Origin: Escherichia coli O157 typing phage 4
Sequence record: KP869102
Direction: 5' to 3' (one strand)
DNA length: 64,000 bases
Shown: positions 14,103-63,516 of the stretch, one piece after another
Layout of the letters: every line of letters begins with the position of its first letter
Position numbering within the stretch: position 1 is the stretch's first letter
Notes under the pieces: model-generated
What the model saw: only the letters and a program-made list of their open reading frames with translations
Told to the model about the DNA's origin: nothing
Database searches by the model: none
Made by a program: the position numbers and the translations under genes

Positions 14103-14170
14103 GTGTCCGTATCACGGACAGTTAGTGTCCGTATTACGGGCAGTAGTGTCCGTATCACGGACAGTTAGTG
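14103..14170. repeat. three tandem palindromes TGTCCGT-N3-ACGGACA (candidate operator or origin sites)
   Basis: 18-bp inverted repeat present three times at ~21-23 bp spacing; middle copy degenerate. Confidence 0.6.
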
Positions 14171-21013: not shown

Positions 21014-21076
21014 TCATTGACATAACCACACGGACGTGGTATTGTTACCTCATAAAATGTTTAGGAGGGTTTAACC

Positions 21077-23873: not shown

Positions 23874-24499
23874 GAGAGCGTCTATTATCCATAGACCAGT
23901 CGTTGACACACACAGCTTGCGTTGTATGGGACGATGGAAAGCCTGTTCACAAGGTTGTGTTACGAACTCAAAGCTCATCTGCAAAAGAGAAGAAACCAGG
24001 GACGGTTTCTTTTGCAACAGCTGCTGAGCGTATTGACTGGATCTGCAAACAGGTCAGATATTATATCCACACGCACGGCGTTGACACCGTGGTTATGGAA
24101 GGGCTTTCCTTTGGATCACGCGGGGATGCCACACGTGAACTGGCTGGGTTGTTTTACGGTCTTGAAGTTATGCTTTGGGATGCTTTGGCTGATTGTGAAA
24201 ATGACGGCCTGTTTAAGGTCCACACAGTGACACCAACAACTGCCAAAAAGTTTGCTCGTAGTCATCTTCCTGAGGAACTTGCTTTTGAGGAGAAGAAAAA
24301 GCTTGACAAAAAGACAGGTAAAGAGCATACTGTGAAGAAACCTGTTACGATGGATAAAAAGTTGATGGTTAAGGCCTGCGAAGTATCTGAACCTGGGTTC
24401 CTAGACGGGATCAATTTGGTACAAGGTAAGGCCGATCTCGCAGATGCTTATTGGATAGGCAGGGCGCATCTGGAGGGATTATCGCAAAGCGTAAAATAA
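23870..24499 (+). CDS. RuvC-like Holliday junction resolvase
   Basis: LSIDQSLTHTACVVW (catalytic Asp) and MEGLSFGSRGDA segments resemble RuvC fold motifs. Confidence 0.5.
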   Translation: MRERLLSIDQSLTHTACVVWDDGKPVHKVVLRTQSSSAKEKKPGTVSFATAAERIDWICKQVRYYIHTHGVDTVVMEGLSFGSRGDATRELAGLFYGLEVMLWDALADCENDGLFKVHTVTPTTAKKFARSHLPEELAFEEKKKLDKKTGKEHTVKKPVTMDKKLMVKACEVSEPGFLDGINLVQGKADLADAYWIGRAHLEGLSQSVK

Positions 24500-34346: not shown

Positions 34347-34625
34347 ATGAGCTGTGAAAAATCTTTTTTCTTTATTATTTACGGTAAAGATAACTGCCCA
34401 CATTGTGTAAGAGCAAAAGAATTTGCAGTCAGTAAAGGTCTGCCTTTTGTATATAAGACACTTGGCGAGGGTTACACAAAAGAAGAGCTTATCGAGAAGT
34501 GCAGTCCAATCGTACCCAGAACGTTGCCGCAGATCTTCTTAGAAAGCAATCTTGAAAGTGTCCATATAGGCGGTGCCGACGATTTCATCTCTTTTGTTAA
34601 GAATGGTTTTGGAGAGAAAAAGTGA
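34347..34625 (+). CDS. glutaredoxin / NrdH-like redoxin
   Basis: CPHC active-site motif in 92-aa protein between RNR genes. Confidence 0.65.
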   Translation: MSCEKSFFFIIYGKDNCPHCVRAKEFAVSKGLPFVYKTLGEGYTKEELIEKCSPIVPRTLPQIFLESNLESVHIGGADDFISFVKNGFGEKK

Positions 34626-36745
34626 AAGTTGTAAAACGGGACGGTAGAGAAGAGGTCTATAACGGAATTAAGGTGATCAAGGCGGCAGAGTCCGCCTTAC
34701 TTGAGTCTGGACATACTGAAGAAGAAGCTTACCGGATCGCCTGCGCGGTTAATGAAGTTGTTGCTAACAATCTACCAACCGACCAGTGCACGATCTCTGT
34801 AAAAAATATCCATATCCTTGTTGAAGACGCTCTTATGGATATGGGTTTAAAATGTGCAGCCAGAGAATACATCCAGTATAGGCAGACAAGAGATAATAAC
34901 AGAGAGGCAGGTGGAAAACTGCTTGCAGATATTAGTGGCTTCTTGGATCGCACTTGTGATGAATTTACAAAAGAAAACGCAAATAAGCCTACCAATCATG
35001 TACACACTCATCGTGACCTGCTTGCAGGCATCCTTAGCAAACACCTTGCATCAACACAGATCCTGCCAGACCGTGTCTCAGAAGAGCACAATAAAGGCTT
35101 CATCCATGTGCATGATCTTGACTACTTGATCAGTCCGTTAACAAACTGTTGTTTGGTAAATTATCCAGATATGTTGGAAAACGGATTCAACATTGGCAAC
35201 GCCCATGTCAGTAAGCCGAAGTCAATAGGGGTTGCAACAACAATCCTTAGCCAAATCTCTAGTGCAGTAGCTAGTGCTCAATATGGAGGTCAGACTATGA
35301 GCCATATTGATCATTATCTGGCACAGTATGCTGAGGCGACCTATGAGAAGAATCTTAAATTTTGCCAGGAACACTGGTTGCCAGATGCTGAGACTGTTGC
35401 AATGCAAATGACAGATAAAGACGTATTTGACAGCATGCAGACTTTGCTCTATCAAATCAATACGTTAACCTCTGTCAACGGGCAAACTCCATTCATCACA
35501 TTAAGTTTAGGACTGGATACCTCGGTCTTTGGTAGAATGATTACCAAAAACTACTTGAAAGTCCACAAAATGGGTCTTGGTGAAGAACGTATCACACCTG
35601 TGTTCCCTAAAGTGCTGTTCTTCCTAGAAGAGGGTGTCAACATGAGCCCTGGAGATCCCAACTATGATTTGAAACGATTAGCTCTGGAATGCTCTGCAGA
35701 GCGGATTTATCCTGACTTTGTTTCTGTTCCACTAAATCGTAAAGTGACAGGCTCGACAGATGGCAAAGTAACGAGCATGGGTTGCCGGAGTTTTCTTAGC
35801 AAATACAATGACTTGGAAACAGGCGAGGAGAAATACCTTGGTAGATTTAACTTAGGCGTTGTTAGCCTTAACCTGCCAATGATTGCGGCAAAAGCTAAAA
35901 CGGAAGGTGTTGATTTCTTTGCAGTTCTTGACGAATACCTGGATCTTGCATACGAGGCTCACCTTGTAAGGGTTAACCGTCTAAAAGGAACAAAGGCAGG
36001 GCAGAACCCTATCATGTGGTGTGAAGGCGCTCTTGCTCGCCTGGATCCTGAAGAGAGTATTGATAAACTCTTCTATGACGGGTACGCTTCCATCAGTATT
36101 GGGTATATTGGTGTGTATGAAACCTGTCAGATTTTGGGCAGGGAGGGTGACAAGGCTTTAGCTCTTGGAATACTCCAGCACATGAGAGATGCTTGTGAGC
36201 GATACAAGAAGGAAAGTAGACTAGCGTTTAGCTTGTACGGCACCCCTTCTGAGAGTCTATGCTATAAAGCTGCAACCTGTCTGGATCGTGAATATCCTGA
36301 AGTGTTGAAGCATGAGCATGAATACCTCACCAACAGTTTCCATCAGCCAGTATGGATAAATAGCTCTCCTTTTGATAAGTGGGAATACGAGGAAGGTTTT
36401 GCTATGATCTCCTCTGGTGGCAACATCGGATACGTAGAGACACCAAATCTGAAAAACAACTTAGATGCTTTAGAGGCTCTTGTTGACTTCGGGTATAAAC
36501 ACATTATGTATTTTGGTATCAACCAGCCTGTGGATAAATGTCTTAAGTGTGGTTTCTCTGGTGAGTTCAGTGCAACAGCTAAGGGATTCGTATGCCCGGA
36601 GTGTGGAAACCATGAAGAGGGAACGATCAGTGTGATCAGACGTGTATCCGGGTACCTGTCTAGTCCAAACTCCCGTCCTTACAATAAAGGTAAGCAAGCG
36701 GAAGTTATAGAACGGGTTAAGCACTACGGAAGTTGTGGTTGCTGA
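34622..36745 (+). CDS. nrdD: anaerobic ribonucleoside-triphosphate reductase
   Basis: 707 aa, C-terminal glycyl-radical-like RRVSGYLSS and Cys cluster; followed by activase gene. Confidence 0.8.
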   Translation: MKVVKRDGREEVYNGIKVIKAAESALLESGHTEEEAYRIACAVNEVVANNLPTDQCTISVKNIHILVEDALMDMGLKCAAREYIQYRQTRDNNREAGGKLLADISGFLDRTCDEFTKENANKPTNHVHTHRDLLAGILSKHLASTQILPDRVSEEHNKGFIHVHDLDYLISPLTNCCLVNYPDMLENGFNIGNAHVSKPKSIGVATTILSQISSAVASAQYGGQTMSHIDHYLAQYAEATYEKNLKFCQEHWLPDAETVAMQMTDKDVFDSMQTLLYQINTLTSVNGQTPFITLSLGLDTSVFGRMITKNYLKVHKMGLGEERITPVFPKVLFFLEEGVNMSPGDPNYDLKRLALECSAERIYPDFVSVPLNRKVTGSTDGKVTSMGCRSFLSKYNDLETGEEKYLGRFNLGVVSLNLPMIAAKAKTEGVDFFAVLDEYLDLAYEAHLVRVNRLKGTKAGQNPIMWCEGALARLDPEESIDKLFYDGYASISIGYIGVYETCQILGREGDKALALGILQHMRDACERYKKESRLAFSLYGTPSESLCYKAATCLDREYPEVLKHEHEYLTNSFHQPVWINSSPFDKWEYEEGFAMISSGGNIGYVETPNLKNNLDALEALVDFGYKHIMYFGINQPVDKCLKCGFSGEFSATAKGFVCPECGNHEEGTISVIRRVSGYLSSPNSRPYNKGKQAEVIERVKHYGSCGC

Positions 36746-36748
36746 TAC

Positions 36749-36780
36749 TTGACAAAAGCCACAAGGATGTGGCATATTAT
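36749..36780 (+). promoter_or_regulatory. sigma70-like promoter with embedded palindrome GCCACAAGGATGTGGC
   Basis: TTGACA then inverted repeat then ATATTAT; near-identical element at 43.7 kb. Confidence 0.5.
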
Positions 36781-36808
36781 TGACACACAGTGAGCTAGGA
36801 GGTACAGT

Positions 36809-36925
36809 ATGTCTACAGGTATTTATAAAATTTGCAAGTGTGGTTGTCGTTGCAATCTTCGTTGGTGCAAGGCACTGGACGATTTTATTTGGCATTGCCC
36901 TAAATGTGATGCGGAGTATCTATGA
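36809..36925 (+). CDS. small zinc-ribbon protein (38 aa)
   Basis: AGGAGG RBS 7 nt upstream; CKCGCRC...CPKC; ATGA overlap with nrdG start; too short for the ORF track. Confidence 0.4.
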   Translation: MSTGIYKICKCGCRCNLRWCKALDDFIWHCPKCDAEYL

Positions 36926-37395
36926 ATATTGCCGGATACACAGAAATATCTTACACCGAAGGGCCAGGTATTAGAACTGCCTTATGGGTATCTGGGTGCC
37001 CACACGCTTGCCCTGGTTGCTTTAATCAGGCATTTTGGTCAAAAGATAAGGGGAGAGAGTTTACTGAAGAAGACTTGCAAAAAATCTTGTCAGATTTAGA
37101 TAACCCGTCTGTGTGCGGTATCTCTCTGCTGGGTGGAGAACCCTTAGCATACTATAATGAGCCAGATATTATTAGCCTGATGGAGAAAATTAAGGAAAAA
37201 TTTGGTGACAAGAAAACTATTCTTGTATATACTGGGTTCACATTTGACCATATCTCTAGTGATGTTCTTAAACTGGCTGATATCATCATTGACGGTAAGT
37301 ATGTAAAAGATTTACCAACCAAGAAACCGTTCCGAGGCAGTGATAACCAAAGAATGTTTAAAAAAGTATCAGGCGGTTGGGTCCAGGTAGACTAG
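36922..37395 (+). CDS. nrdG: anaerobic ribonucleotide reductase activating protein (radical SAM)
   Basis: CPHACPGC radical-SAM cysteine motif; downstream of nrdD. Confidence 0.8.
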   Translation: MNIAGYTEISYTEGPGIRTALWVSGCPHACPGCFNQAFWSKDKGREFTEEDLQKILSDLDNPSVCGISLLGGEPLAYYNEPDIISLMEKIKEKFGDKKTILVYTGFTFDHISSDVLKLADIIIDGKYVKDLPTKKPFRGSDNQRMFKKVSGGWVQVD

Positions 37396-37398
37396 CTG

Positions 37399-37429
37399 TT
37401 GACAAAGCTTTGTTTAGATAGGTATAATT
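37399..37429 (+). promoter_or_regulatory. sigma70-like promoter
   Basis: TTGACA - 19 nt - TATAAT. Confidence 0.5.
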
Positions 37430-37459
37430 ATCGTAAAATGAAAGCAGAGGAGGTGCCAA

Positions 37460-37573
37460 ATGGCTAAAAAAGCCTTGAAGAAGGCGTACAAAAAAGAAAT
37501 TGCGCTTGAGCTCAAGAAAAAACACAAGCGTGAAAAGAAACATCATGAGGATGAAGAGGGGGTGCAACAGTGA
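37460..37573 (+). CDS. small basic protein (37 aa)
   Basis: GAGGAGG RBS; Lys-rich peptide; GTGA overlap with next gene. Confidence 0.3.
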   Translation: MAKKALKKAYKKEIALELKKKHKREKKHHEDEEGVQQ

Positions 37574-37920
37574 CACAAGAACGTATCGATTTGGCTAATA
37601 AGTTTGTAGATCTCATTTTGCCACGGTTAGTTACTCAACATGCAGACGCTATTTCTACTAATCTTGATGGCTTACGCCTAATGCTGAATCGCACAGATGA
37701 CCCTCGTATTCGGGCTGATTTAGAAGCCTCTGCCAACAAACTGGAAAAGTTCTTGCAAGTAGACACGCAAGAAGCCTTACACAAGATTATGGTGGAAGGT
37801 TTCTCTAAAGAATTTACCATTAAAGAGCTTAAGGAGCTGATCCACCAAGAAGAGATGAATATCCGAGTTCAGGCTGTTGCAAGCAGCATGGAAGCGGCTA
37901 TTGAAAAACTGTTGCAGTAA
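37570..37920 (+). CDS. hypothetical protein
   Basis: 116-aa ORF, apparent GTG start. Confidence 0.45.
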   Translation: MTQERIDLANKFVDLILPRLVTQHADAISTNLDGLRLMLNRTDDPRIRADLEASANKLEKFLQVDTQEALHKIMVEGFSKEFTIKELKELIHQEEMNIRVQAVASSMEAAIEKLLQ

Positions 37921-37958
37921 AAGTACTTGGCACATCTCAATCTGAAAGGAGTCCCAAC

Positions 37959-38747
37959 ATGGGTCGAGCTAAAGAAACAAAACGCATGCGTGATGAAGCT
38001 AGAGAGGCTCGCAAATCTGATCGCCTGCGTAAGGCTGCTGAGAAATTTGCTGACGAAAGAGAGCACACCGCTCCAGCTCTCCGACCAATGAATAAGAAGC
38101 AGCAAAAGTATCTTGATTATCTAGGGTCACGTAAGATTATCATTGTAAACGGTGTGTTTGGATCTGGTAAGACATTCATGGCATCTGCCTATGCAGGTGA
38201 TCTTCTGCGTAAGAACGAGATTGATAAGATCATTGTTGCACGTCCTTACGTTCAGACAGGAAAGACTTCAGGATTTAAACCTGGAAATGCAATGCAGAAA
38301 CTGTGGCCCTATCTTCGAAGCATGATGGACACGATTTGTCGTCGTGTTGGCAAAGGTGCTTTTGCCGCAATGCTGGGAGACGGTCAGAACAGCCGTATCG
38401 AGATTTGTGAGGTTGAAAGCATTCGTGGTCGTAGTTTCGATGAGCGATGCTTTGTCCTGATTGACGAGGCACAGCAAACTAACCCTGAAGAAATGTTGTC
38501 AATTATCACAAGGATCTCTGATCAGGCCACCCTTGTAATTATGGGCGATAATAGCCAACGTGACATCCCTGGTAAATCTGGCCTTGCATGGGTGACGGAT
38601 TTCTTTACTCGTCATCCAGATCCTGAGGTTGGAATGATCAGCTTTGATAGTCCAGACGATGTTGTTCGTTCCGGGTTGGGTCGTCAGATTGCACTCAATC
38701 TTATTGAGGATCGTGCAAATCATATTTGGACCCCTGTTTCCGAGTAA
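37959..38747 (+). CDS. phoH: PhoH-like ATPase
   Basis: Walker A GVFGSGKTF and Walker B VLIDEAQ in 262-aa protein. Confidence 0.8.
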   Translation: MGRAKETKRMRDEAREARKSDRLRKAAEKFADEREHTAPALRPMNKKQQKYLDYLGSRKIIIVNGVFGSGKTFMASAYAGDLLRKNEIDKIIVARPYVQTGKTSGFKPGNAMQKLWPYLRSMMDTICRRVGKGAFAAMLGDGQNSRIEICEVESIRGRSFDERCFVLIDEAQQTNPEEMLSIITRISDQATLVIMGDNSQRDIPGKSGLAWVTDFFTRHPDPEVGMISFDSPDDVVRSGLGRQIALNLIEDRANHIWTPVSE

Positions 38748-38791
38748 TACAGAAGGGTGGTTATTCCACCCTTAGATATCTAAAACAGTTG

Positions 38792-38820
38792 TTGACAAAC
38801 AGGTAAGATTTAGATATTAT
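38792..38820 (+). promoter_or_regulatory. sigma70-like promoter
   Basis: TTGACA - 17 nt - TATTAT upstream of gene at 38851. Confidence 0.55.
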
Positions 38821-41808: not shown

Positions 41809-41847
41809 TAATTTATCTTACCAGGGACGGTAGAAGTAGGAGGTAGC

Positions 41848-43249: not shown

Positions 43250-43707
43250 CGATGTTTGTTAAATATGTAAAAACGTGCCTCAACAGCCTTGGCAGAGAGC
43301 ATTGGTACACCTTGCTTGAAAAAGGAGAGATTTTAACAAAATCTGGAAAGATAACTTTGATACCTCTTGACAGTAAAGACCCGTCACTACTTGTTATAGA
43401 TGATTACGTTACAGGTGTGACGTTCGAGGTCTCTGTGGAGAGGTTAATACGCAGAGCTGGCGGCCCTTGTGATCAAAGAGAGTATGTTTTCGATTCCGTT
43501 ACAGAGAGGGATCATCCGTCTTTAATGTTCAGGATGGTAATCAGAGATATGAGGTCATCTATAGATAGGATCGTAAAGGACATTAAGGAACCTTTTAGAG
43601 TAAAAGTTAAGAAGTTTTTTGATTCTAAGATTAACATACTTGCCGTTGTGCTAGGCGTAATTCAACTTCTGTTAATTTTGCACTATTTTGAACTGTTGTC
43701 TAAGTAG
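43246..43707 (+). CDS. hypothetical protein with C-terminal TM helix
   Basis: 153 aa, C-terminal ILAVVLGVIQLLLILHYF. Confidence 0.45.
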   Translation: MTMFVKYVKTCLNSLGREHWYTLLEKGEILTKSGKITLIPLDSKDPSLLVIDDYVTGVTFEVSVERLIRRAGGPCDQREYVFDSVTERDHPSLMFRMVIRDMRSSIDRIVKDIKEPFRVKVKKFFDSKINILAVVLGVIQLLLILHYFELLSK

Positions 43708-43767
43708 TGTGCAACAAGGCACAAAGGATGTGCCATAATTAAACAAATTAAGAAAGAGGTAGAGAGA

Positions 43768-47469: not shown

Positions 47470-47564
47470 TCCTGCTCGGATTAGCATACTTCTCTCAATA
47501 AAAAGAAAAGTTTGTAATTATTTGTGGGAAAGGAATCCCCATCTCTTGCCAGAGGTGATACTAT

Positions 47565-48560: not shown

Positions 48561-48578
48561 TTTTCTTGCACACAGGTG

Positions 48579-48608
48579 TTGACAACGCCAACCCTGTGTG
48601 AAATAATA
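48579..48608 (+). promoter_or_regulatory. sigma70-like promoter flanked by inverted repeat CACAGG/CCTGTG
   Basis: TTGACA with -10-like AATAAT; palindrome arms bracket the -35. Confidence 0.45.
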
Positions 48609-48636
48609 CCTTCATCTTAACAAGACAGGAGACCGA

Positions 48637-48897
48637 TTGATGAAGATTAAATTGAAAAACCTTGAAACGGCAGAGATTCAGGACGGTGTGGATTTCCGTT
48701 CTAAAGATGGTGACATCTTAGAGGTAAATATTCCAACCTACGAGCTGATCAAAGGTTTTGGCAACGTCCCCGAGGAAGGTATCGCAGACGTTCTTATAAT
48801 GTTAATCGTTAGTGGGACAGTGTTCTTGGGGGAAGGTGAGAACGCTATTGCAATCCCAAGCCATTTTTATGAAGTAGTTGACGAAGAGGCGCTGTAA
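48637..48897 (+). CDS. small acidic protein (MKIKL N-terminus)
   Basis: 86 aa, acidic tail VVDEEAL. Confidence 0.45.
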   Translation: MMKIKLKNLETAEIQDGVDFRSKDGDILEVNIPTYELIKGFGNVPEEGIADVLIMLIVSGTVFLGEGENAIAIPSHFYEVVDEEAL

Positions 48898-52558: not shown

Positions 52559-52793
52559 CACACAATTAGCTGCCCGGCTAAAGTGCTGGAAGCACCTATA
52601 ACACATCTTTCAACTAAATTTCCCACCACAACAATCACTTACCTCCCATACATGACTGTTTGCTTGTTTAGTGAGCAGTCATGCCTTGACATTCTTGCCT
52701 ATCCTGATAAAATTAAGTTCTTCTCTTTTCTTTTACCGAGTAATTCGGGTTTTCTGTTCTCTTCGGTTTGAAGGGGTATGGAGATACACCTGA

Positions 52794-52893
52794 NNNNNNN
52801 NNNNNNNNNNNNNNNNNNNNNNNNNNNNNNNNNNNNNNNNNNNNNNNNNNNNNNNNNNNNNNNNNNNNNNNNNNNNNNNNNNNNNNNNNNNNN
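52794..52893. other. assembly gap (run of N)
   Basis: 100 consecutive N. Confidence 0.99.
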
Positions 52894-52944
52894 TTAGTGG
52901 CGGGAAGTTTTCCCGCCTGTGTTTTTAATTATACTTATTGAGAT

Positions 52945-53205
52945 TTACTTGTCAACACTATTTTTTAAATTATTGTGGCGCAAAATGTTTAAAATCTCTT
53001 CAACGTCATCAACACGGCGGCAATTTTTAAACGCTACCAATTGCCCCATGATTTTAATCACTGGGCGGCCTTGCCAGTGCCCCTGGAGAAAGCGCGCCTT
53101 GACTTTATCAGTGGAACTATCACGCCACCAAACGGCCTTGTTATTGCAGTAGTAAAAATTATTCAGGACAATATCAACTTTATCAAAATTTTTTAATTTA
53201 CGCAT
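52945..53205 (-). CDS. hypothetical protein
   Basis: 86-aa minus-strand ORF. Confidence 0.4.
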   Translation of the reverse strand: MRKLKNFDKVDIVLNNFYYCNNKAVWWRDSSTDKVKARFLQGHWQGRPVIKIMGQLVAFKNCRRVDDVEEILNILRHNNLKNSVDK

Positions 53206-53413
53206 AGTGTTTACTCCTTCCTTCTTGCTTTGATGTGGTTAGTATATCCGGACTATTCCAAGGTGTCAAGCTTTAAATAAAATCACTGTCAATGATATTT
53301 TTAACACCATAAAACGGCCCTGGGTGATGTTTTCAGGCTAAGAAAGGGGATTGCATAGGTAGGGGCTTTTGTGGCGTTTGTGGGGCCAACCAGGGGCGCT
53401 ATTCGTAGGATAG

Positions 53414-53442
53414 AAATAAAAAGCCCCGCACAATGGCGGGGC
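53414..53442 (-). terminator. rho-independent terminator
   Basis: On minus strand GCCCCGC-CATTGT-GCGGGGC followed by TTTTTATTT. Confidence 0.55.
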
Positions 53443-53531
53443 GTTGGTTGTTATTTGTCTTTATGGCGGTATCGTTCCGCTTGTCGTTCACGTTCCAAAA
53501 GTAGGCCCGGCAATTTACGATCATAATGATT

Positions 53532-53633
53532 CCNNNNNNNNNNNNNNNNNNNNNNNNNNNNNNNNNNNNNNNNNNNNNNNNNNNNNNNNNNNNNNNNNNN
53601 NNNNNNNNNNNNNNNNNNNNNNNNNNNNNNNNN
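53532..53633. other. assembly gap (run of N)
   Basis: About 100 consecutive N. Confidence 0.99.
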
Positions 53634-53949
53634 TGGCCTGAATCGCCCGGATACGGCGTTTTATAACCTCCTGATCCGTGCAATCGTATCCCCAAAAGTC
53701 TACAATTTTCGCGCCGCCAGCTTTTAAGCGGTATAATGTTTCTTGCATTTTGTAAGCTGGGATCGGTCGCGGTGTTACCTGGTCGCCTTTTTCATCCTTG
53801 TACTTGATTATGTAGTCCTCGTTGTCGTTGAATACCCAAAAAGGGTACTCTGTAAGGGCGTTGCTTTCTTTTTCGTTTTTAGATTGGATCTTGTTTACAA
53901 TTAAAGCCGTAGCAATAGCGCCAATAATAAAACTAGCCCCGCTGATCAT
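53634..53949 (-). CDS. hypothetical protein with N-terminal TM helix, partial (runs into gap)
   Basis: Minus ORF from ATG ~53949; 3-prime end lost in N run. Confidence 0.35.
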
Positions 53950-54024
53950 GTTACTTTCTCCTTTCATTGTGTTGATAAACTATCTTTATAGATGGCCCTG
54001 TTACCAGGACCACCGAAAAAATAA

Positions 54025-54270
54025 CTATTTCACAATGCCTACAAAACAGATCCCGCCTTCACCTATATAGGCAATATCGGTAATTTTATAATTTGTCAAG
54101 ATCCGCGTGTTCAGATCATTAATAAAATCGGTCATCGCGTTGGTGTAGTTGTCTTCCGTGTCTAAGGCATAATCCCAGGTGTAAACCTTTTTACGTCCGA
54201 AGCCTTTTACCATGATACGGGCGCTTTTGGTGTTGGTAGGGGCATAATATTTGGTGATTAGTGCTGCCAT
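54025..54270 (-). CDS. hypothetical protein
   Basis: 81 aa, AGGAG RBS. Confidence 0.4.
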   Translation of the reverse strand: MAALITKYYAPTNTKSARIMVKGFGRKKVYTWDYALDTEDNYTNAMTDFINDLNTRILTNYKITDIAYIGEGGICFVGIVK

Positions 54271-54359
54271 GGTTTTAACTCCTCTGAATTAGTTCAGTGT
54301 TAACAGTATAAAGTTTACTTTATTGATGGCCCTGAAGTCAAGGCCATCTAAAAATAAAC

Positions 54360-54701
54360 TTACTCGTTTTCTTCCAGCTCCGCAAGCTCTTCTTTTGCTT
54401 CTTCTAACTCTGTCTGTAGTTCCTGGTATTCTTCATCGTCCTCAATATCCAGGCTGTCGATGTAGTCGCTAAATCCGCAGCGGTAAGCGATAGGATCTAG
54501 CTCCTTGAGGATACGCGACGGAAGAAAAGAAATGTTTCCGATCATAATTTCGCCGTAGATCTCGTCTAACCATTCATCATAGTTTTCGTCGTACTTGTCC
54601 TCGTCGATTTCAAAGTTATCGATCTTGTTCTCAAGGTCTGCGATCTGTTTTTTCAGCGCGGCGATCTGCATAGCTTTTTCTGCGGCGGTCATAGTAGTCA
54701 T
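54360..54701 (-). CDS. hypothetical acidic coiled-coil protein
   Basis: 113 aa, AAGGAG RBS. Confidence 0.45.
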   Translation of the reverse strand: MTTMTAAEKAMQIAALKKQIADLENKIDNFEIDEDKYDENYDEWLDEIYGEIMIGNISFLPSRILKELDPIAYRCGFSDYIDSLDIEDDEEYQELQTELEEAKEELAELEENE

Positions 54702-54980
54702 GGTGTTTTCTCCTTTTGTGTGCTCTGGGAAGTTTTCCCGTTTACGTGTTTAAGTATAGCGATCTAAGTTAGTTTGTCAATTAAAAATTTAAGAAAAATT
54801 TTGCAAAACTGTTAGCGCTACTCATTAACATTTGCGCCAGGATGTAACCAATGATGCAAACGATAATAGTTACCTTTGTGTGCTGGCGTGTAGTACTCAT
54901 CTTTAAGCCCCCCTTTCCGCTCAACTGTGGTTAGTTTACTTTATTGATGGCCCTGGAGTCAAGGCCATCTAAAAATAAAC

Positions 54981-55376
54981 TCAGTACGTTTTCAGTACTT
55001 TCCCGTCCAACCTGTCTAACTGAATCTCAATAGCTGCAGAAAACCTATTGTAAACCACATCGCCCAAGGAGTCCAGCCAATCTATAACGTTATACACCTG
55101 CTCTTTATTCTTGCAAGTCCGGATCCGTTTCATTACGTAAGACGGATCAATATTAGTACTCCCGTTGTTGTGGTCATGCGCCTGGCCTGCTGCACTGGTT
55201 ATAGATTTTACAACCACCTGAAAGGGCTTTAAGGTGCCTTTTGCGTTCATCTCACGCGCTTTTGCGGCGCGGTTGTTATATGTTACACAACGGCGGCAAA
55301 TGTTGAATAAATGCATGTCAATAATTTTTTCATCGTTTGCCAGTTCGTTCATGATGCGGCGTACGTTCTTATTCAT
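54981..55376 (-). CDS. hypothetical protein
   Basis: 131 aa, AGAGGA RBS. Confidence 0.45.
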   Translation of the reverse strand: MNKNVRRIMNELANDEKIIDMHLFNICRRCVTYNNRAAKAREMNAKGTLKPFQVVVKSITSAAGQAHDHNNGSTNIDPSYVMKRIRTCKNKEQVYNVIDWLDSLGDVVYNRFSAAIEIQLDRLDGKVLKTY

Positions 55377-55460
55377 AGCTTTTCCTCTGTGTTGGCGGGA
55401 TGTTTCCCGCCTTTTGTGTCTAGTTTACTTGAATTTTGCAGCGTGTCAATAATTTTTTTT

Positions 55461-55859
55461 TTATTCGTGGGCACATGTTACAATGTGCTTTTTATAGCCC
55501 AGGTGGGCAGCAAGTGCCGCCAAAAACTCATCTTCATAGATCCAGCCGTTGGCAGTGATCCCCATAGCATTTAATGCGCTCTCAAGTGCTGCGTTAGCTT
55601 TATCATAACCGTGACCGCTCGCCTTGCCGCCAGTATAACCGTACTTATTGTTCTTGTTGTCGTGTATCCAAAAAACGCAGTAGTTAGTGTTACCGCTGGC
55701 GGCGGCATAGTACCGGATCTCCGCTACTTCGTGCAAATTATTATCATCGTCCAGGCCAACCAGATTATAAGCCTTGTAAAATCCACGATCACGGCGGCAG
55801 TTCTTGACATCAGAAAAAGAGAAGTCGGCATTGTCAAAATTAAAGGTTGTGGTTTTCAT
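55461..55859 (-). CDS. hypothetical protein
   Basis: 132-aa ORF. Confidence 0.45.
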   Translation of the reverse strand: MKTTTFNFDNADFSFSDVKNCRRDRGFYKAYNLVGLDDDNNLHEVAEIRYYAAASGNTNYCVFWIHDNKNNKYGYTGGKASGHGYDKANAALESALNAMGITANGWIYEDEFLAALAAHLGYKKHIVTCAHE

Positions 55860-55923
55860 GATTTTATCCTCTTAGTGTCTTTTGTGATTTCAGTATATTT
55901 TGTGTCGGGGCGTATGTCAATAC

Positions 55924-56121
55924 TTATTTTTTATTAAACCAGTGATTGATCTGACCTTTTGTCAGGGCGCAACGATTAAGCTGTTGCAGGGTATAGCTAT
56001 GACCGCGACGAAATTTATAAAGGCCTTGCCCGTTGTTGATGGTTACATCCACCAGGCAAACCACTTGATCGGTGACCACCTGGCGAGTGTTGCGACGTAC
56101 TTTGATTCCGTATGCGTTCAT
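55924..56121 (-). CDS. hypothetical basic protein
   Basis: 65-aa ORF. Confidence 0.35.
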   Translation of the reverse strand: MNAYGIKVRRNTRQVVTDQVVCLVDVTINNGQGLYKFRRGHSYTLQQLNRCALTKGQINHWFNKK

Positions 56122-56209
56122 GATTTTTTATCCTCTCTGTTAATTAGTGTGGTGTTGTTCACCTTGCGAGGATAAGAATAACAAGAACTGTCCGAGCTGT
56201 CAACCATTA

Positions 56210-56362
56210 GTTAAAATTATTTTTGCCCCTGCCAGGTTAACCATCATTTTTTCGTACTCTTCTTTATGTTCCAACGCTCCCGCCATAGCCTTTTCAACCA
56301 GGGCGATAGCCTCAGCGTCATTAATAGCTACATTTTCCAGGGGGATCATATTACCTTTCATT
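56210..56362 (-). CDS. small hypothetical protein (~50 aa)
   Basis: Minus ORF MKGNMIPLENVAINDAEAIALVEK... with AAGGGGAGG RBS; below ORF-track length cutoff. Confidence 0.3.
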
Positions 56363-56544
56363 TTTGTACCTCCCCTTCAATTGTTACCTATCCTATAGCA
56401 TAGGCCCACCAGGTTTACAAGCCTTCATTCTCTCCTGCCTGGTCAGTTAGGTCCTGCCAGGCTGGCCCCGCCAGGTTGCAGCGGTTAGCGCATCAGGTTA
56501 GAAAAATTTTTTGAAAAGTGTTGACAGCGGCCCCGCCAGGTGGC
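56231..56544. repeat. iteron-like array of CYGCCAGGT motifs (about 7 copies)
   Basis: cctgccaggtt, cccaccaggtt, cctgcctggtc, cctgccaggct, ccccgccaggtt, catcaggtt, ccccgccaggtg read directly. Confidence 0.55.
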
Positions 56545-56894
56545 ACAATATACCTATCGAAAGGACGGCAGGCACCGGTGACGGGGGAGGCAACCACCGG
56601 GGATGGACGCTGCATAAAATGAGAACGGTTATCATTATCATTTAAAAATTTATGCAAAAAATCCTTGCTTTCTTTGTCCTGTGTGATACTATAATAACAA
56701 GCCGGGGCAACAGGGGCCGGGAGACAATCACCGGGCCTGCCCGTTATTCTGCAAACGAGAATGATTATCATTCAAAATTCTAAATGAGAACTCCTCGCAT
56801 TTAATAAATTTAATTAGCATGCTAATTACCCTCCGTAACAATTTCCTATAAAACAGTATCCCATAAAATATTTCCATATAGAAATTTTAAAAAT

Positions 56895-57069
56895 CCATTT
56901 CTGAAAACGAAAAATCGATTTCGTCCCCAAAAATTTCAGGTCGAGATCCGGAACGATTTCCAGAAAATCCGATTTAGAAAACGAAAAACAGATCGAGTAC
57001 TGAGAAATTTATCGAGAAAAATTTTCAGAAAATTCAATCTTTGAAACGAAAAACAGATCGAGTACCTGG
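56895..57069. repeat. AT-rich direct repeats (unit ending GAAAACGAAAAACAGATCGAGTAC), two full copies and one partial
   Basis: Near-identical ~44-bp copies at ~56957-57000 and ~57023-57066, partial copy ~56895-56925. Confidence 0.6.
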
Positions 57070-57377
57070 AAAGCTGCACTGCAACTTCAAGATAGTGGTT
57101 AGATTATTACCATAAAAGGTCAAGGGTAAGTGGAGGAAGTTCTAGTAGAAGGATGTGAGCATGTGTGGGAAATCTATAATGGTGGCCTGGAATATGGTGC
57201 AAACGATAGGATGAGTTATTCAGCTTGTCGCGCCTACTCTGAAAAATCCATTTTAGTTTTCGATCCATTTTCTGATTTTCTAAGAATTTTAAAATATCCA
57301 GCCCGGTGAAATATCAAAAGGAGGAAATCCATTTTAGAAATCCCCCTTATACTTGATATGCCAGGAATTTTCAAGTA

Positions 57378-59202: not shown

Positions 59203-59760
59203 TCAACACTTTTTGTACTCCACCACGATAATATTCATATCAAAAGTGGCAAGGTTAATAACGTCCTCTACGTGCTCCCACTTCAAACCGCCTATGCCGC
59301 ACCCGATCTTAGGGATGTAGAATGGTAAAGTCGATCCACTGAATACCTCATTGACTAGCTCAAAGCCTTTCAGGATTGAGAAATATTCAGCATTAGGTCC
59401 TGGGTAGAACTGAGTATACAGATTGATTCCGTAGACAATACCTCTCGGAGATAAGTGCTCCCATCGGGAGAACGCACCCAGTTTACTTAGGCAACCGTGT
59501 CTGGTCTCTTTGTCAGCTGCCAATGCTTGAGGGAACTCACGGGCAATCTGTTTTGCTATCCCCTTGCCCATTGTGTGGAAGCAGTTACAACCGTGGATCA
59601 GGTGACCAGCACCGCTCTTAAAAAGGGAGATTAAATCTCCCTCTACAGTATCAATAATCACGGTATGCCAGCTCCTCTTCCGCAATTTCAAAAAACTCAT
59701 CCCAACCTTGTGGCATATTTGAGTTGCCGAAGTGGCTTTCATAGTAAAGGTTCTCACCAC
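59203..59760 (-). CDS. macro-domain protein (ADP-ribose binding/processing)
   Basis: HLIHGCNCFHTMGKGIAKQIAREFP resembles the macro-domain core; true start probably an internal ATG. Confidence 0.55.
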   Translation of the reverse strand: MVRTFTMKATSATQICHKVGMSFLKLRKRSWHTVIIDTVEGDLISLFKSGAGHLIHGCNCFHTMGKGIAKQIAREFPQALAADKETRHGCLSKLGAFSRWEHLSPRGIVYGINLYTQFYPGPNAEYFSILKGFELVNEVFSGSTLPFYIPKIGCGIGGLKWEHVEDVINLATFDMNIIVVEYKKC

Positions 59761-60144: not shown

Positions 60145-60342
60145 TTACACAGGAATTGCTTCAAACAGGCCGTTATCTATACCGTCCTTCAGATAGAGAT
60201 TATATTCTATATCGGTATCTGTATAAAGGGCAGCATCCAGCATTCTATCTGTGAGTCCATCCATTGGGTGGAGAAACCACCACCCACGCCAGTCAAAGTA
60301 ACAGCCTGGTGCATCTTCTCTTACACGGATTCGATAAATCAT
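60145..60342 (-). CDS. hypothetical protein (gene A; second copy starts at 61334)
   Basis: 65 aa; identical N-terminus seen again at 61285-61334. Confidence 0.4.
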   Translation of the reverse strand: MIYRIRVREDAPGCYFDWRGWWFLHPMDGLTDRMLDAALYTDTDIEYNLYLKDGIDNGLFEAIPV

Positions 60343-60438
60343 GGGCAGTGGCCTCCTGTTAGTTATACATCCCAGTTTTCTTCGTTCATCGCGTCCTCCC
60401 GTTATATGAAGTTATAATTGCACACCTTTCAACCTGTG

Positions 60439-60855
60439 TCAACAGAAAACTTCAACAAATTCTTCCACAGTTTTAATGTCGTGGGAAAAAGGTTTACGGC
60501 TATAACGGGCAATAGCACTATCAACCACCGCCCGGTACTCCAAATCTTCAGAATATTTCATGAAGCATTGCAGCGTCTCTGGGCAGATAGCTAAATAGCT
60601 CCACCACCCTTCTTCAGATTGGTAGTCGAATCCCATACTCTCCAACCATGAAGCATATACTCCTGCACCCTCAAGCCAGTGAGTATTTTCATCCAGAAAC
60701 TTGTTAATAGACATGTGAGCTTCTAAGCATTTATCTAGCTCTTTTCCGTTAACCAGCCACGCACTGACCGTGGCGCATCCAAGGTCTACAGATTGAGTTG
60801 ACAGGTTGTATTGGTCATAGTTCTCAGGTTTAACAATGATATCTTCTAATGTCAT
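60439..60855 (-). CDS. hypothetical protein (gene B, copy 1)
   Basis: 138 aa; ~98 percent identical to 61431..61847. Confidence 0.45.
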   Translation of the reverse strand: MTLEDIIVKPENYDQYNLSTQSVDLGCATVSAWLVNGKELDKCLEAHMSINKFLDENTHWLEGAGVYASWLESMGFDYQSEEGWWSYLAICPETLQCFMKYSEDLEYRAVVDSAIARYSRKPFSHDIKTVEEFVEVFC

Positions 60856-61184: not shown

Positions 61185-61284
61185 NNNNNNNNNNNNNNNN
61201 NNNNNNNNNNNNNNNNNNNNNNNNNNNNNNNNNNNNNNNNNNNNNNNNNNNNNNNNNNNNNNNNNNNNNNNNNNNNNNNNNNNN
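61185..61284. other. assembly gap (run of N)
   Basis: 100 consecutive N. Confidence 0.99.
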
Positions 61285-61430
61285 TCAAAGTAACAGCCTG
61301 GTGCATCTTCTCTTACACGGATTCGATAAATCATGGGCAGTGGCCTCCTGTTAGTTATACATCCCAGTTTTCTTCGTTCATCGCGTCCTCCCGTTCTATG
61401 AAGTTATAATTGCACACCTTTCCACCTGTG

Positions 61431-61847
61431 TCAACAGAAAACTTCAACAAACTCTTCCACAGCTTTAATGTCGTGGGAAAAAGGTTTACGGCTATAACGG
61501 GCAATAGCACTATCAACCACCGCCCGGTACTCCAAATCTTCAGAATATTTCATGAAGCATTGCAGCGTCTCTGGGCAGATAGCTAAATAGCTCCACCACC
61601 CCTCTTCAGATTGGTAGTCGAATCCCATACTCTCCAACCATGAAGCATATACTCCTGCACCCTCTAGCCAGTGGGTATTTTCATCAAGAAATTTATTCAC
61701 CGACATGTGTGCTTCCAGGCACTCGTCAAGCTCTTTTCCGTTAACCAGCCATGCACTGACTGTGGCGCATCCGAGGTCTACAGATTGAGTTGACAGGTTG
61801 TATTGGTCATAGTTCTCAGGTTTAACAATGATATCTTCTAATGTCAT
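61431..61847 (-). CDS. hypothetical protein (gene B, copy 2)
   Basis: 138 aa; differs from copy 1 at a few residues. Confidence 0.45.
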   Translation of the reverse strand: MTLEDIIVKPENYDQYNLSTQSVDLGCATVSAWLVNGKELDECLEAHMSVNKFLDENTHWLEGAGVYASWLESMGFDYQSEEGWWSYLAICPETLQCFMKYSEDLEYRAVVDSAIARYSRKPFSHDIKAVEEFVEVFC

Positions 61848-63027: not shown

Positions 63028-63127
63028 NNNNNNNNNNNNNNNNNNNNNNNNNNNNNNNNNNNNNNNNNNNNNNNNNNNNNNNNNNNNNNNNNNNNNNNNN
63101 NNNNNNNNNNNNNNNNNNNNNNNNNNN
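63028..63127. other. assembly gap (run of N)
   Basis: 100 consecutive N. Confidence 0.99.
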
Positions 63128-63416: not shown

Positions 63417-63516
63417 NNNNNNNNNNNNNNNNNNNNNNNNNNNNNNNNNNNNNNNNNNNNNNNNNNNNNNNNNNNNNNNNNNNNNNNNNNNNNNNNNNNN
63501 NNNNNNNNNNNNNNNN
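63417..63516. other. assembly gap (run of N)
   Basis: 100 consecutive N. Confidence 0.99.

Follow-up and report, generated by a model that had tools for sequence, protein, structure and literature searches.

The 64,000-nucleotide (nt) stretch of the genome of Escherichia coli O157 typing phage 4 analyzed here (KP869102), referred to in its full length as the window, contains two similar short inverted repeats within its long rightward block of early/middle genes, which comprises open reading frames (ORFs) 76-154. Copy 1 is located between nrdD and the ORF108-nrdG pair, and copy 2 between ORF125 and ORF126. The first-pass annotation of the window had interpreted the two repeats as a palindrome embedded in two promoters and proposed a shared operator for a phage-encoded regulator. 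Here we describe these repeats as members of a family of strand-specific, intercistronic hairpins with a GGA-containing loop, which most likely act as RNA rather than as a DNA operator and which are candidate binding sites for the host regulator CsrA. The region 34600-38800 of the window is 100% identical (megablast) to Escherichia phage JES2013 (NC_022323/KC690136), an rV5-like member of Vequintavirus, and a position in the window equals the position in the JES2013 record minus 50144, up to window position 52793.

Copy 1 reads TGA-tac-TTGACA-aaa-GCCACAAGGATGTGGC-ATATTATT; its hairpin lies 12 nt past the stop codon of nrdD (36745), and 35 nt separate the hairpin end from the start codon of ORF108, a 38-amino-acid, Cys-rich ORF overlapping with the nrdG start (36922). 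In copy 2, which has the sequence TAG-tgtgcaacaa-GGCACAAAGGATGTGCC-ATAATT, the hairpin is placed 10 nt past the ORF125 stop codon (43707), with 33 nt between its end and the ATG of ORF126 (43768). Folded in isolation, copies 1 and 2 are predicted to form hairpins of -9.3 kcal/mol (z = -3.9) and -9.2 kcal/mol (z = -4.1), respectively, and the same hairpins are found in the predicted centroid structures of the whole leaders (Table 1). Copy 1 can alternatively be drawn with a stem of 6 base pairs (bp) and an AGGA loop. Thus, both the element upstream of the small ORF and nrdG, with its TTGACA at 36749, and the partner near 43705-43740 are present as originally described. They are, however, less than near-identical: what they have in common is a 12/13-nt core with one indel, their second stem pair is inverted (C-G in copy 1, G-C in copy 2), and their flanks show no relationship.

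Table 1. Hairpins of the family and associated signals (window positions, unless a position in the phage record is indicated)
Feature	Position	Strand	Description
Copy 1 hairpin, GCCAC-AAGGAU-GUGGC	36758..36773	+	DNA GCCACA-AGGA-TGTGGC = GCCACAAGGATGTGGC
Sigma-70-like promoter around copy 1	36749..36778	+	-35 TTGACA 36749-54, 18-nt spacer, TG 36770-71, -10 CATATT 36773-78
ORF108 Shine-Dalgarno AGGAGG and ATG	36797..36811	+	Shine-Dalgarno 36797-36802, ATG 36809
Copy 2 hairpin, GGCAC-AAAGGAU-GUGCC	43718..43734	+	7-nt loop; DNA GGCACA-AAGGA-TGTGCC = GGCACAAAGGATGTGCC
Copy 3 hairpin, ACCAC-ACGGAC-GUGGU, upstream of ORF84	21025..21040	+	11 nt past ORF83 stop; fits (A/U)CANGGANG(U/A)
ORF119 member, UUACC-AGGGAC-GGUAG	41818..41833	+	10 nt past ORF118 stop; ~11 nt before AGGAGG Shine-Dalgarno
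ORF139 member, GGGA-AAGGAA-UCCC	47526..47539	+	Ends 25 nt before ATG
Copy 4 hairpin, CAGCAC-AGGGAG-GUGCUG, DNA polymerase to ORF209	record 124909-26, outside window	minus	
ORF30 to ORF29 member, AGAACGGA-AAGGAC-UCCGUUCU	record 22305-26, outside window	minus	

The description of the repeats as parts of two promoters applies to copy 1 alone. In a consensus scan, TTGACA-N18-CATATT around this copy scores 10/12, with the TG present, and in the record of phage Gotham the site is annotated as a prediction of the PhagePromoter software. The 30 nt from TTGACA to CATATT are unchanged in nine Vequintavirus sequences, whereas the next 17 nt vary at seven positions. At copy 2, the scan reports no promoter on the plus strand and no -35 element, and the would-be -10 hexamer, CATAAT (43734-39), drifts to CATGAT, CATAGT or CATAAC among eight Vequintavirus variants, the last of these forms having lost the key final T. 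In the same eight variants, a 19-nt block at copy 2, GGCACAAAGGATGTGCCAT, is unchanged while both flanks diverge, with the 8-10 nt upstream almost unrecognizable from genome to genome; in phages Aya and EI-SP-GF, the flanks extend the stem to 8-9 bp. With a fixed hairpin and a drifting -35 region and -10 hexamer, copy 2 is conserved as a hairpin and not as a promoter.

Hairpins of the same kind were searched for in the 99 same-strand intergenic gaps (11,330 nt) delimited by the 224 annotated genes of JES2013, requiring at least four Watson-Crick pairs and an A-N(1-2)-GGA-N loop, with 500 dinucleotide-preserving shuffles as the null. All seven such hairpins that were detected are on the mRNA strand, with an antisense count of zero; their number is 14 times the expectation from the shuffles (0.51 +/- 0.72, maximum 3). 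GGA is the commonest of the 64 trinucleotides at the loop position (eight sense vs no antisense occurrences), and the density of the hairpins in same-strand gaps is about 10 times that in sense coding sequence. Copies 1 and 2 are the two most similar members of this family. All members but copy 2, with its 7-nt loop, have a hexaloop (6/7), and the spacing of the arms among the copies is 4, 5 or 6 nt (4 in copy 1 and 5 in copy 2). The pattern ACA-N(1-2)-GGA-N-GT has eight matches genome-wide on both strands, among which copies 1-4 are the only ones that are both intergenic and in a hairpin.

The placement of the hairpins is regular: the distance from the upstream stop codon to the start of the hairpin is 9-12 nt in six of seven cases, and the members sit 15-58 nt upstream of start codons, all on the sense strand. 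The ORF139 member, 56 nt from the upstream stop codon, is the weakest, having the ANGGAN loop alone in common with the others. Copy 4 and the ORF119 member occupy promoterless intercistronic gaps of 39-49 nt, that of the ORF119 member being 39 nt long. Copy 3 resembles copy 1 in lying within a promoter spacer, TTGACA (21017-22)-N17-TATTGT (21040-45), which scores 10/12 plus TG; the complete element reads TTGACA-taa-CCACACGGACGTGG-TATTGT (21017-21045), and its hairpin is kept in Aya and EI-SP-GF while the flanks differ. In the rV5 paper, copy 3 coincides with the predicted promoter P090, and copies 1 and 2 are unlisted. In a search of the Rfam database, no family was detected across 20500-48500 at E-values up to 5, save one chance match.

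One further hairpin with an ANGGAN loop was observed on the plus strand at 23988-24013, AGAAGAAACC-AGGGAC-GGUUUCUUUU, with 8 Watson-Crick pairs (10 with G.U pairs). It is located inside the annotated ORF90, about 120 nt from its start, and is the only match in a coding region of the window. It may represent either another member of the family or an internal signal.

The motif search proposed with the original annotation was uninformative on its own. Neither strand of the 136,910-bp genome contains the exact core, CACAA(A)GGATGTG, outside the two sites, but looser motifs occur at chance level: with up to two mismatches, three cores were found vs 3.5 expected, and there are eight CACA-N3-7-TGTG palindromes vs 6.8 expected, the other matches being in coding sequence. 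A third TGTGGCATATT, at 59709, was rejected as a copy: it forms no hairpin and falls within coding sequence of a minus-strand block. By our own estimate, to find one 12-mer twice in some 11 kb of intergenic DNA is in itself no rare event. The case against chance is made by the joint features, namely, a perfect hairpin, equal placement relative to the neighboring stop and start, preservation amid diverging flanks, and membership in an enriched family. Chance similarity, or a pair of weak intrinsic terminators after nrdD and ORF125, is accordingly a highly improbable explanation; it agrees with the counts of the loose motifs and with the terminator-like flag raised at copy 1 by the 6-bp stem and the tail ATATTATT, but it leaves unexplained both the conservation between diverging flanks and the 7:0 strand bias at 14 times the shuffles. 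Moreover, the bona fide terminators of the phage are plain G+C-rich stems with T-runs, and no terminator was found between nrdD and ORF108 or between ORF125 and ORF126. The intrinsic terminator was rejected, given that the tail of copy 1 (AUAUUAUU) is flagged under loose rules only and copy 2, which lacks a T-run, is not flagged.

What the family retains among related phages was assessed using the complete genomes of Aya and EI-SP-GF and several other genomes that could be assembled in part. Across 16 rows of members and their variants, the loop A, G, G and A are the only invariant columns, and 96.3% of the stem cells are paired, vs 46.5% in shuffles. Since pairing was a selection criterion for the JES2013 rows, it is the orthologous variants that supply independent evidence. 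Copy 4 exists as CAGCAC-AGGGAG-GUGCUG, CAACAC-ACGGAA-GUGUUG and CAACAC-AUGGAA-GUGUUG, that is, with a compensatory double change from G-C to A-U in the stem and with G, C or U at the first N and G or A at the second N of the loop. In the hairpin upstream of ORF119, the loop changes from AGGGAC to AUGGAC, and an A to G change in the stem in Aya remains paired only as G.U; the ORF139 loop changes from AAGGAA to AAGGAG in Aya and C12. The ORF30|29 hairpin also carries an A to G change (G.U) in Aya, and in EI-SP-GF its closing A-U pair is replaced by U.G, along with a loop change from AAGGAC to AAGGAU. Thus, variation in the orthologous loops is confined to the N positions, and none of the ten substitutions breaks a pair or touches the A or the GGA. 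The conservation signal is in the position of the changes, not in their number.

These observations bear on the interpretation of the repeats as a palindromic DNA operator, bound between the -35 and -10 elements by a dimeric transcription regulator of the phage or the host. An operator in a promoter spacer is a classic repression geometry, and copies 1 and 3 are inverted repeats located exactly in the spacers of TTGACA-N17/18-(TG)-10 promoters, the TTGACA being conserved and placed 3 nt past a TGA stop codon in both cases. An operator is expected to have symmetric half-sites, fixed spacing and strand-independence; the hairpin family, by contrast, has variable arm spacing and an asymmetric conserved center, the GGA, which is found on the mRNA strand in every case. 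Pairing after the A to G changes is kept only as G.U in the sense-strand RNA, and the double change at copy 4 (G-C to A-T in the DNA) would hit both half-sites of an operator. Furthermore, copy 2 lacks a -35 element and a stable -10 hexamer, and other members of the family have no promoter at all. Hence, the part of the first-pass annotation that holds is a shared, selected cis-regulatory motif, with copy 1 in a promoter spacer, whereas the palindromic DNA operator is poorly supported and appears very unlikely. Asymmetry, strand specificity, maintenance of the structure and a fixed A-N-GGA-N loop are what would be expected of an RNA-protein site rather than of a DNA palindrome bound by a dimer.

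The hairpins closely resemble the sites of CsrA and its RsmA/RsmE relatives in mRNA leaders and in sponge RNAs of the CsrB/RsmZ type. In the high-affinity CsrA consensus, RUACARGGAUGU, obtained by SELEX (in which ligands are systematically evolved by exponential enrichment), ACA and GGA are 100% conserved and GU nearly so, and in the selected ligands the GGA occupies a hairpin loop, mostly a hexaloop, that is closed by pairing between AC and GU. An ANGGAN hexaloop is likewise present in the RsmE structures. As RNA, the two phage sequences are GCC-ACA-A-GGA-UGU-GGC (copy 1) and GGC-ACA-AA-GGA-UGU-GCC (copy 2). Copy 1 (ACAAGGAUGU) matches 10/10 positions of the consensus core, with the leading RU unmatched, and the ACA, GGA and GU are all kept in copy 2 (ACAAAGGAUGU, with one extra A), copy 3 (ACACGGACGU) and copy 4 (ACAGGGAGGU), i.e., in four members of the phage family. 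The GGA is in the predicted loop of copies 1, 2 and 3; by construction of the search, this is the case for all seven members.

One CsrA dimer is able to span a pair of sites at a distance of 10-63 nt, typically a hairpin together with a Shine-Dalgarno sequence, as in the glgC leader with its high-affinity hairpin and a second site overlapping the Shine-Dalgarno. A comparable two-site layout is present at four of the six members: copies 1, 3 and 4 and the ORF119 member have a Shine-Dalgarno sequence with GGA within this range, whereas copy 2 and the ORF139 member have none. At copy 1, the second GGA is inside the AGGAGG of ORF108, 33 nt downstream of the GGA in the loop. The phage hairpins differ from the known CsrA sites in that they belong to a virulent phage, are intercistronic rather than located in a 5'-terminal leader, start 9-12 nt after stop codons and, in two cases, lie in promoter spacers; their stems are longer (5-6 bp), and copy 2 combines a 7-nt loop with the absence of a second GGA. 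No CsrA homolog was detected in the phage by tblastn (best E = 2.8); therefore, the binder would be the host protein. A Shine-Dalgarno-like standby site was considered and rejected by reasoning, because loops such as ACGGAC and AUGGAC would pair with the anti-Shine-Dalgarno over just 3 nt.

Taken together, the sequence comparisons suggest, with a probability that we put at about 0.5, that the repeated elements are post-transcriptional hairpin sites for host CsrA. Under this model, long rightward polycistronic transcripts would read through nrdD into ORF108-nrdG and through ORF125 into ORF126. In the read-through RNA, each element is predicted to fold as a short hairpin with the A-N-GGA-N loop closed by AC/GU, which would be recognized by the host global regulator. 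A CsrA dimer held on the hairpin could then bridge to the GGA of the Shine-Dalgarno sequence about 20-35 nt downstream and lower the translation of the next cistron, as in the glgC leader; alternatively, the effect could be on mRNA stability. Either way, ORF84, ORF108/nrdG, ORF119, ORF126, ORF139 and ORF209 would be tied to the activity of CsrA in the host. A distance of 9-12 nt after the stop codon corresponds roughly to the edge of the ribosome footprint, so that a terminating ribosome probably need not melt the hairpins.

The sigma-70-like promoters at copies 1 and 3 are probably also real. At these two copies, the hairpin would be packed into the free spacer of the promoter, with its 3' arm supplying the TG of the extended -10 element, an arrangement that can be seen as packing economy, the gap at copy 1 being 63 nt long. 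Because transcription from these promoters would start downstream of the hairpin, the resulting transcripts would lack it and might escape control. We tentatively extend this scheme, with less confidence than we place in the sites themselves, to a Vequintavirus "CsrA regulon" of four to seven high-affinity hairpins lying one ribosome footprint past stop codons, two of them nested in promoter spacers, in which read-through and promoter-derived mRNAs would be treated differently.

A different view of copies 1-3 grants the promoters only. Under this explanation, the 3' arm would function as a TGTGn extended -10 element that offsets a weak -10 hexamer, and the 5' arm and the likeness of the copies would be fortuitous or left over from duplication of a promoter cassette, similar to the promoter-early stem-loop (PeSL) cassettes of T4-type phages. 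TGn indeed directly precedes a (C/T)ATWWT hexamer in copies 1-3, and in the rV5 paper, 11 promoters are of the extended -10 type and the late motif given, TggTAaAAtA, likewise starts with (G)TGG. A duplicated cassette is in keeping with the absence of the ORF108 cassette from PVP-SE1, phi92 and TH18. However, the 5' arm and the loop of copy 2 are invariant even though its -10 hexamer drifts, and this explanation accounts neither for the promoterless members nor for the compensatory changes in the stems and the sense-only GGA loops. It is therefore quite unlikely.

PeSL cassettes and the elements described here both unite a stem-loop and a near-consensus sigma-70 promoter with a Shine-Dalgarno sequence and start codon in a compact intergenic arrangement, next to small ORFs that are present or absent among relatives, here the ORF108 cassette. 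The PeSL stem-loop, however, is terminator-like, lies upstream of the -35 element rather than in the spacer, and has no reported conservation of the loop sequence, whereas the phage hairpin is in the spacer or promoterless, and its loop is the most conserved part. Only two or three promoter-embedded copies are present here, as opposed to many PeSL copies, and no evidence of recombination was found at them; a PeSL cassette was rejected on these anatomical grounds.

An NrdR box was considered for copy 1, a palindrome beside nrd genes (upstream of nrdG). NrdR boxes are 16-bp palindromes, ACACWATATATWGTGT, usually occurring in tandem in nrd promoters. Copy 1 is single rather than tandem, and copy 2 and the other members are located away from nrd genes. 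Within three mismatches of the box, the window contains two matches (10338 and 55890), a chance-level number, neither of them near the nrd genes, and this candidate was rejected.

Several observations weigh against CsrA as the ligand. The idea arose after copies 1-3 had been seen, so that the independent tests are limited to the four further members and the variation among orthologs. Copy 2, with its 7-nt loop and a Shine-Dalgarno sequence without GGA, would be a single site, and three of the seven members have the ANGGAN loop but not ACA..GU. With U-rich sequence behind its stem, the ORF30|29 member has the look of a terminator, and a late promoter is predicted downstream of it. The stems of 5-6 bp exceed those of most SELEX ligands (4 or fewer). 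In the two full genomes, the hairpin bases are 91.5% conserved vs 86.5% for the intergenic background (p = 0.13). The exact placement of copies 1 and 3 in spacers with a perfect, conserved TTGACA is a further difficulty, for which the RNA model offers only packing economy.

The distribution of the family among phages adds another such point. With crude gene calls applied to all genomes in this comparison, the counts of sense/antisense hairpins are 5/0 in JES2013, 6/0 in Aya and 4/0 in EI-SP-GF, vs about 0.4-0.5 expected, and 2/0 vs 0.41 expected in the unrelated coliphage Phapecoctavirus 536P1. Thus, the enrichment is marked in Vequintavirus and weak outside. Because 536P1, which infects the same host species, is little enriched, a Vequintavirus-specific factor is also possible. 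The two 536P1 hairpins, GACAG-AAGGAU-CUGUC and UGGC-AGGGAA-GCCA (record positions 101960-102021 and 122212-122246), begin 5-6 nt past the stop codon as called, and 16-40 nt lie between their ends and the next start, which hints that the motif may occur rarely in other coliphages.

Within the broader group of relatives, the family looks like a Vequintavirus innovation. The ORF108 cassette, together with copy 1, is missing from PVP-SE1, phi92 and TH18, where nrdD and nrdG overlap and neither an intergenic region nor a small ORF is present; because of this overlap, these phages provide no covariation for copy 1. The homologs of ORF126 form only four clusters, all with at least 80% identity and none outside Vequintavirus, and at the DNA polymerase junction, more distant relatives have ordinary terminators in place of the hairpin.

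A family of RNA hairpins with a ligand or role other than CsrA would be consistent with much of the same evidence. The binder could be a phage-encoded RNA-binding protein or endoribonuclease, or else the hairpins could be intercistronic stabilizers or processing signals after stop codons. The sense-only orientation, the compensatory and G.U changes, and the invariant A and GGA of the loop fit this explanation equally well; the regular distance of 9-12 nt from the stop codon suggests a tie to the 3' end of the upstream cistron; and both the clear enrichment in three Vequintavirus genomes along with the weak one in 536P1 and the ordinary terminators at the polymerase junction of more distant relatives are in line with a genus-specific system. 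However, a purely structural stabilizer would not require an invariant loop, the match to the independently defined ACA..GGA..GU hairpin motif would be a coincidence, and no candidate phage RNA-binding protein was found, with Pfam searches drawing a blank for eight neighboring small proteins. On balance, we consider a non-CsrA role rather unlikely, and host CsrA remains our preferred ligand.

The region around copy 1 is variable in other respects. The Cys-rich ORF between nrdD and nrdG (36809-36925) is Vequintavirus-specific. LL12, APECc02, DrSchubert and MaxTheCat have about 390 extra bases and two more small ORFs between nrdD and nrdG (710-1214 in phage LL12), and in other relatives, nrdD is split by an HNH endonuclease.

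Several other elements were observed in the window. In a 640-nt non-coding gap adjoining a gene annotated as encoding a replication initiation protein, three tandem 21-22-nt repeats of GTGTCCGTATCACGGACAGTTAGTG (14103-14170) each contain the inverted repeat GTCCGT..ACGGAC; these repeats look like iterons and could mark an origin. In the gap between ORF141 and ORF142 (48561-48639), a predicted promoter, P150 of the rV5 paper, has its -35 TTGACA flanked by an inverted repeat, CACACAGG...CCTGTGTG, which is conserved in five genomes; the GGA hairpins have a different geometry. On the leftward strand, the region of small ORFs at 52900-57072 contains repeated intergenic cassettes, such as TTTATTGATGGCCCTGAAGTCAAGGCCATCTAAAAATAAACT (three copies), GGGAAGTTTTCCC...TTGTCAA (two copies) and 62-nt AT-rich repeats (56872-57072); these cassettes resemble repeated terminator and promoter modules.

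Beyond position 52793, the colinearity of the window with NC_022323 is lost, with about 8.8 kb of that record skipped. Five runs of exactly 100 N are present (52794-52893, 53534-53633, 61185-61284, 63028-63127 and 63417-63516), and a segment of roughly 992 nt occurs twice (60293-60592 and 61285-61584, 99% identical). The N runs and the lost colinearity look like those of a scaffolded draft assembly of a JES2013-like phage. Few relatives of this phage are present in IMG/VR. About 20 GenBank records of the MG0656xx series (C12, A12a, C15 and others), labeled Campylobacter phage, are 94-99% identical to this phage in the regions tested; several of these are flagged UNVERIFIED, and they are probably mislabeled Vequintavirus genomes.

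The targets known for CsrA, which is among the main post-transcriptional regulators of E. coli, are mRNAs of chromosomal or plasmid origin and sponge RNAs. In the literature searched, we found no description of CsrA sites in mRNAs of lytic phages, and a string search for the exact site returned unrelated primer sequences only. Phage-encoded CsrA homologs are mentioned in the literature, where their role is called untested. The best-supported description of the elements, as judged from their sequences, would thus be a known kind of site, the CsrA-type hairpin, in a setting unreported so far, a virulent phage. If the hairpins bind CsrA, such a phage would read or perturb a signal of the carbon and growth state of the host at the level of translation, and a lytic phage would have wired some of its genes into a host regulatory circuit. 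The putative regulon would couple the translation of early/middle genes, including that for the anaerobic ribonucleotide reductase activase, to host metabolism; alternatively, the abundant phage mRNA might titrate CsrA as part of the takeover of the cell. The CsrA interpretation would also explain the conservation of some "promoter palindromes" in phage genomes. Phages of the rV5-like group are widely used against E. coli O157, and four to seven hairpins of 16 nt would provide a simple, mutable handle on them. Should CsrA prove not to be the ligand, the family would still be a conserved, strand-specific RNA motif.

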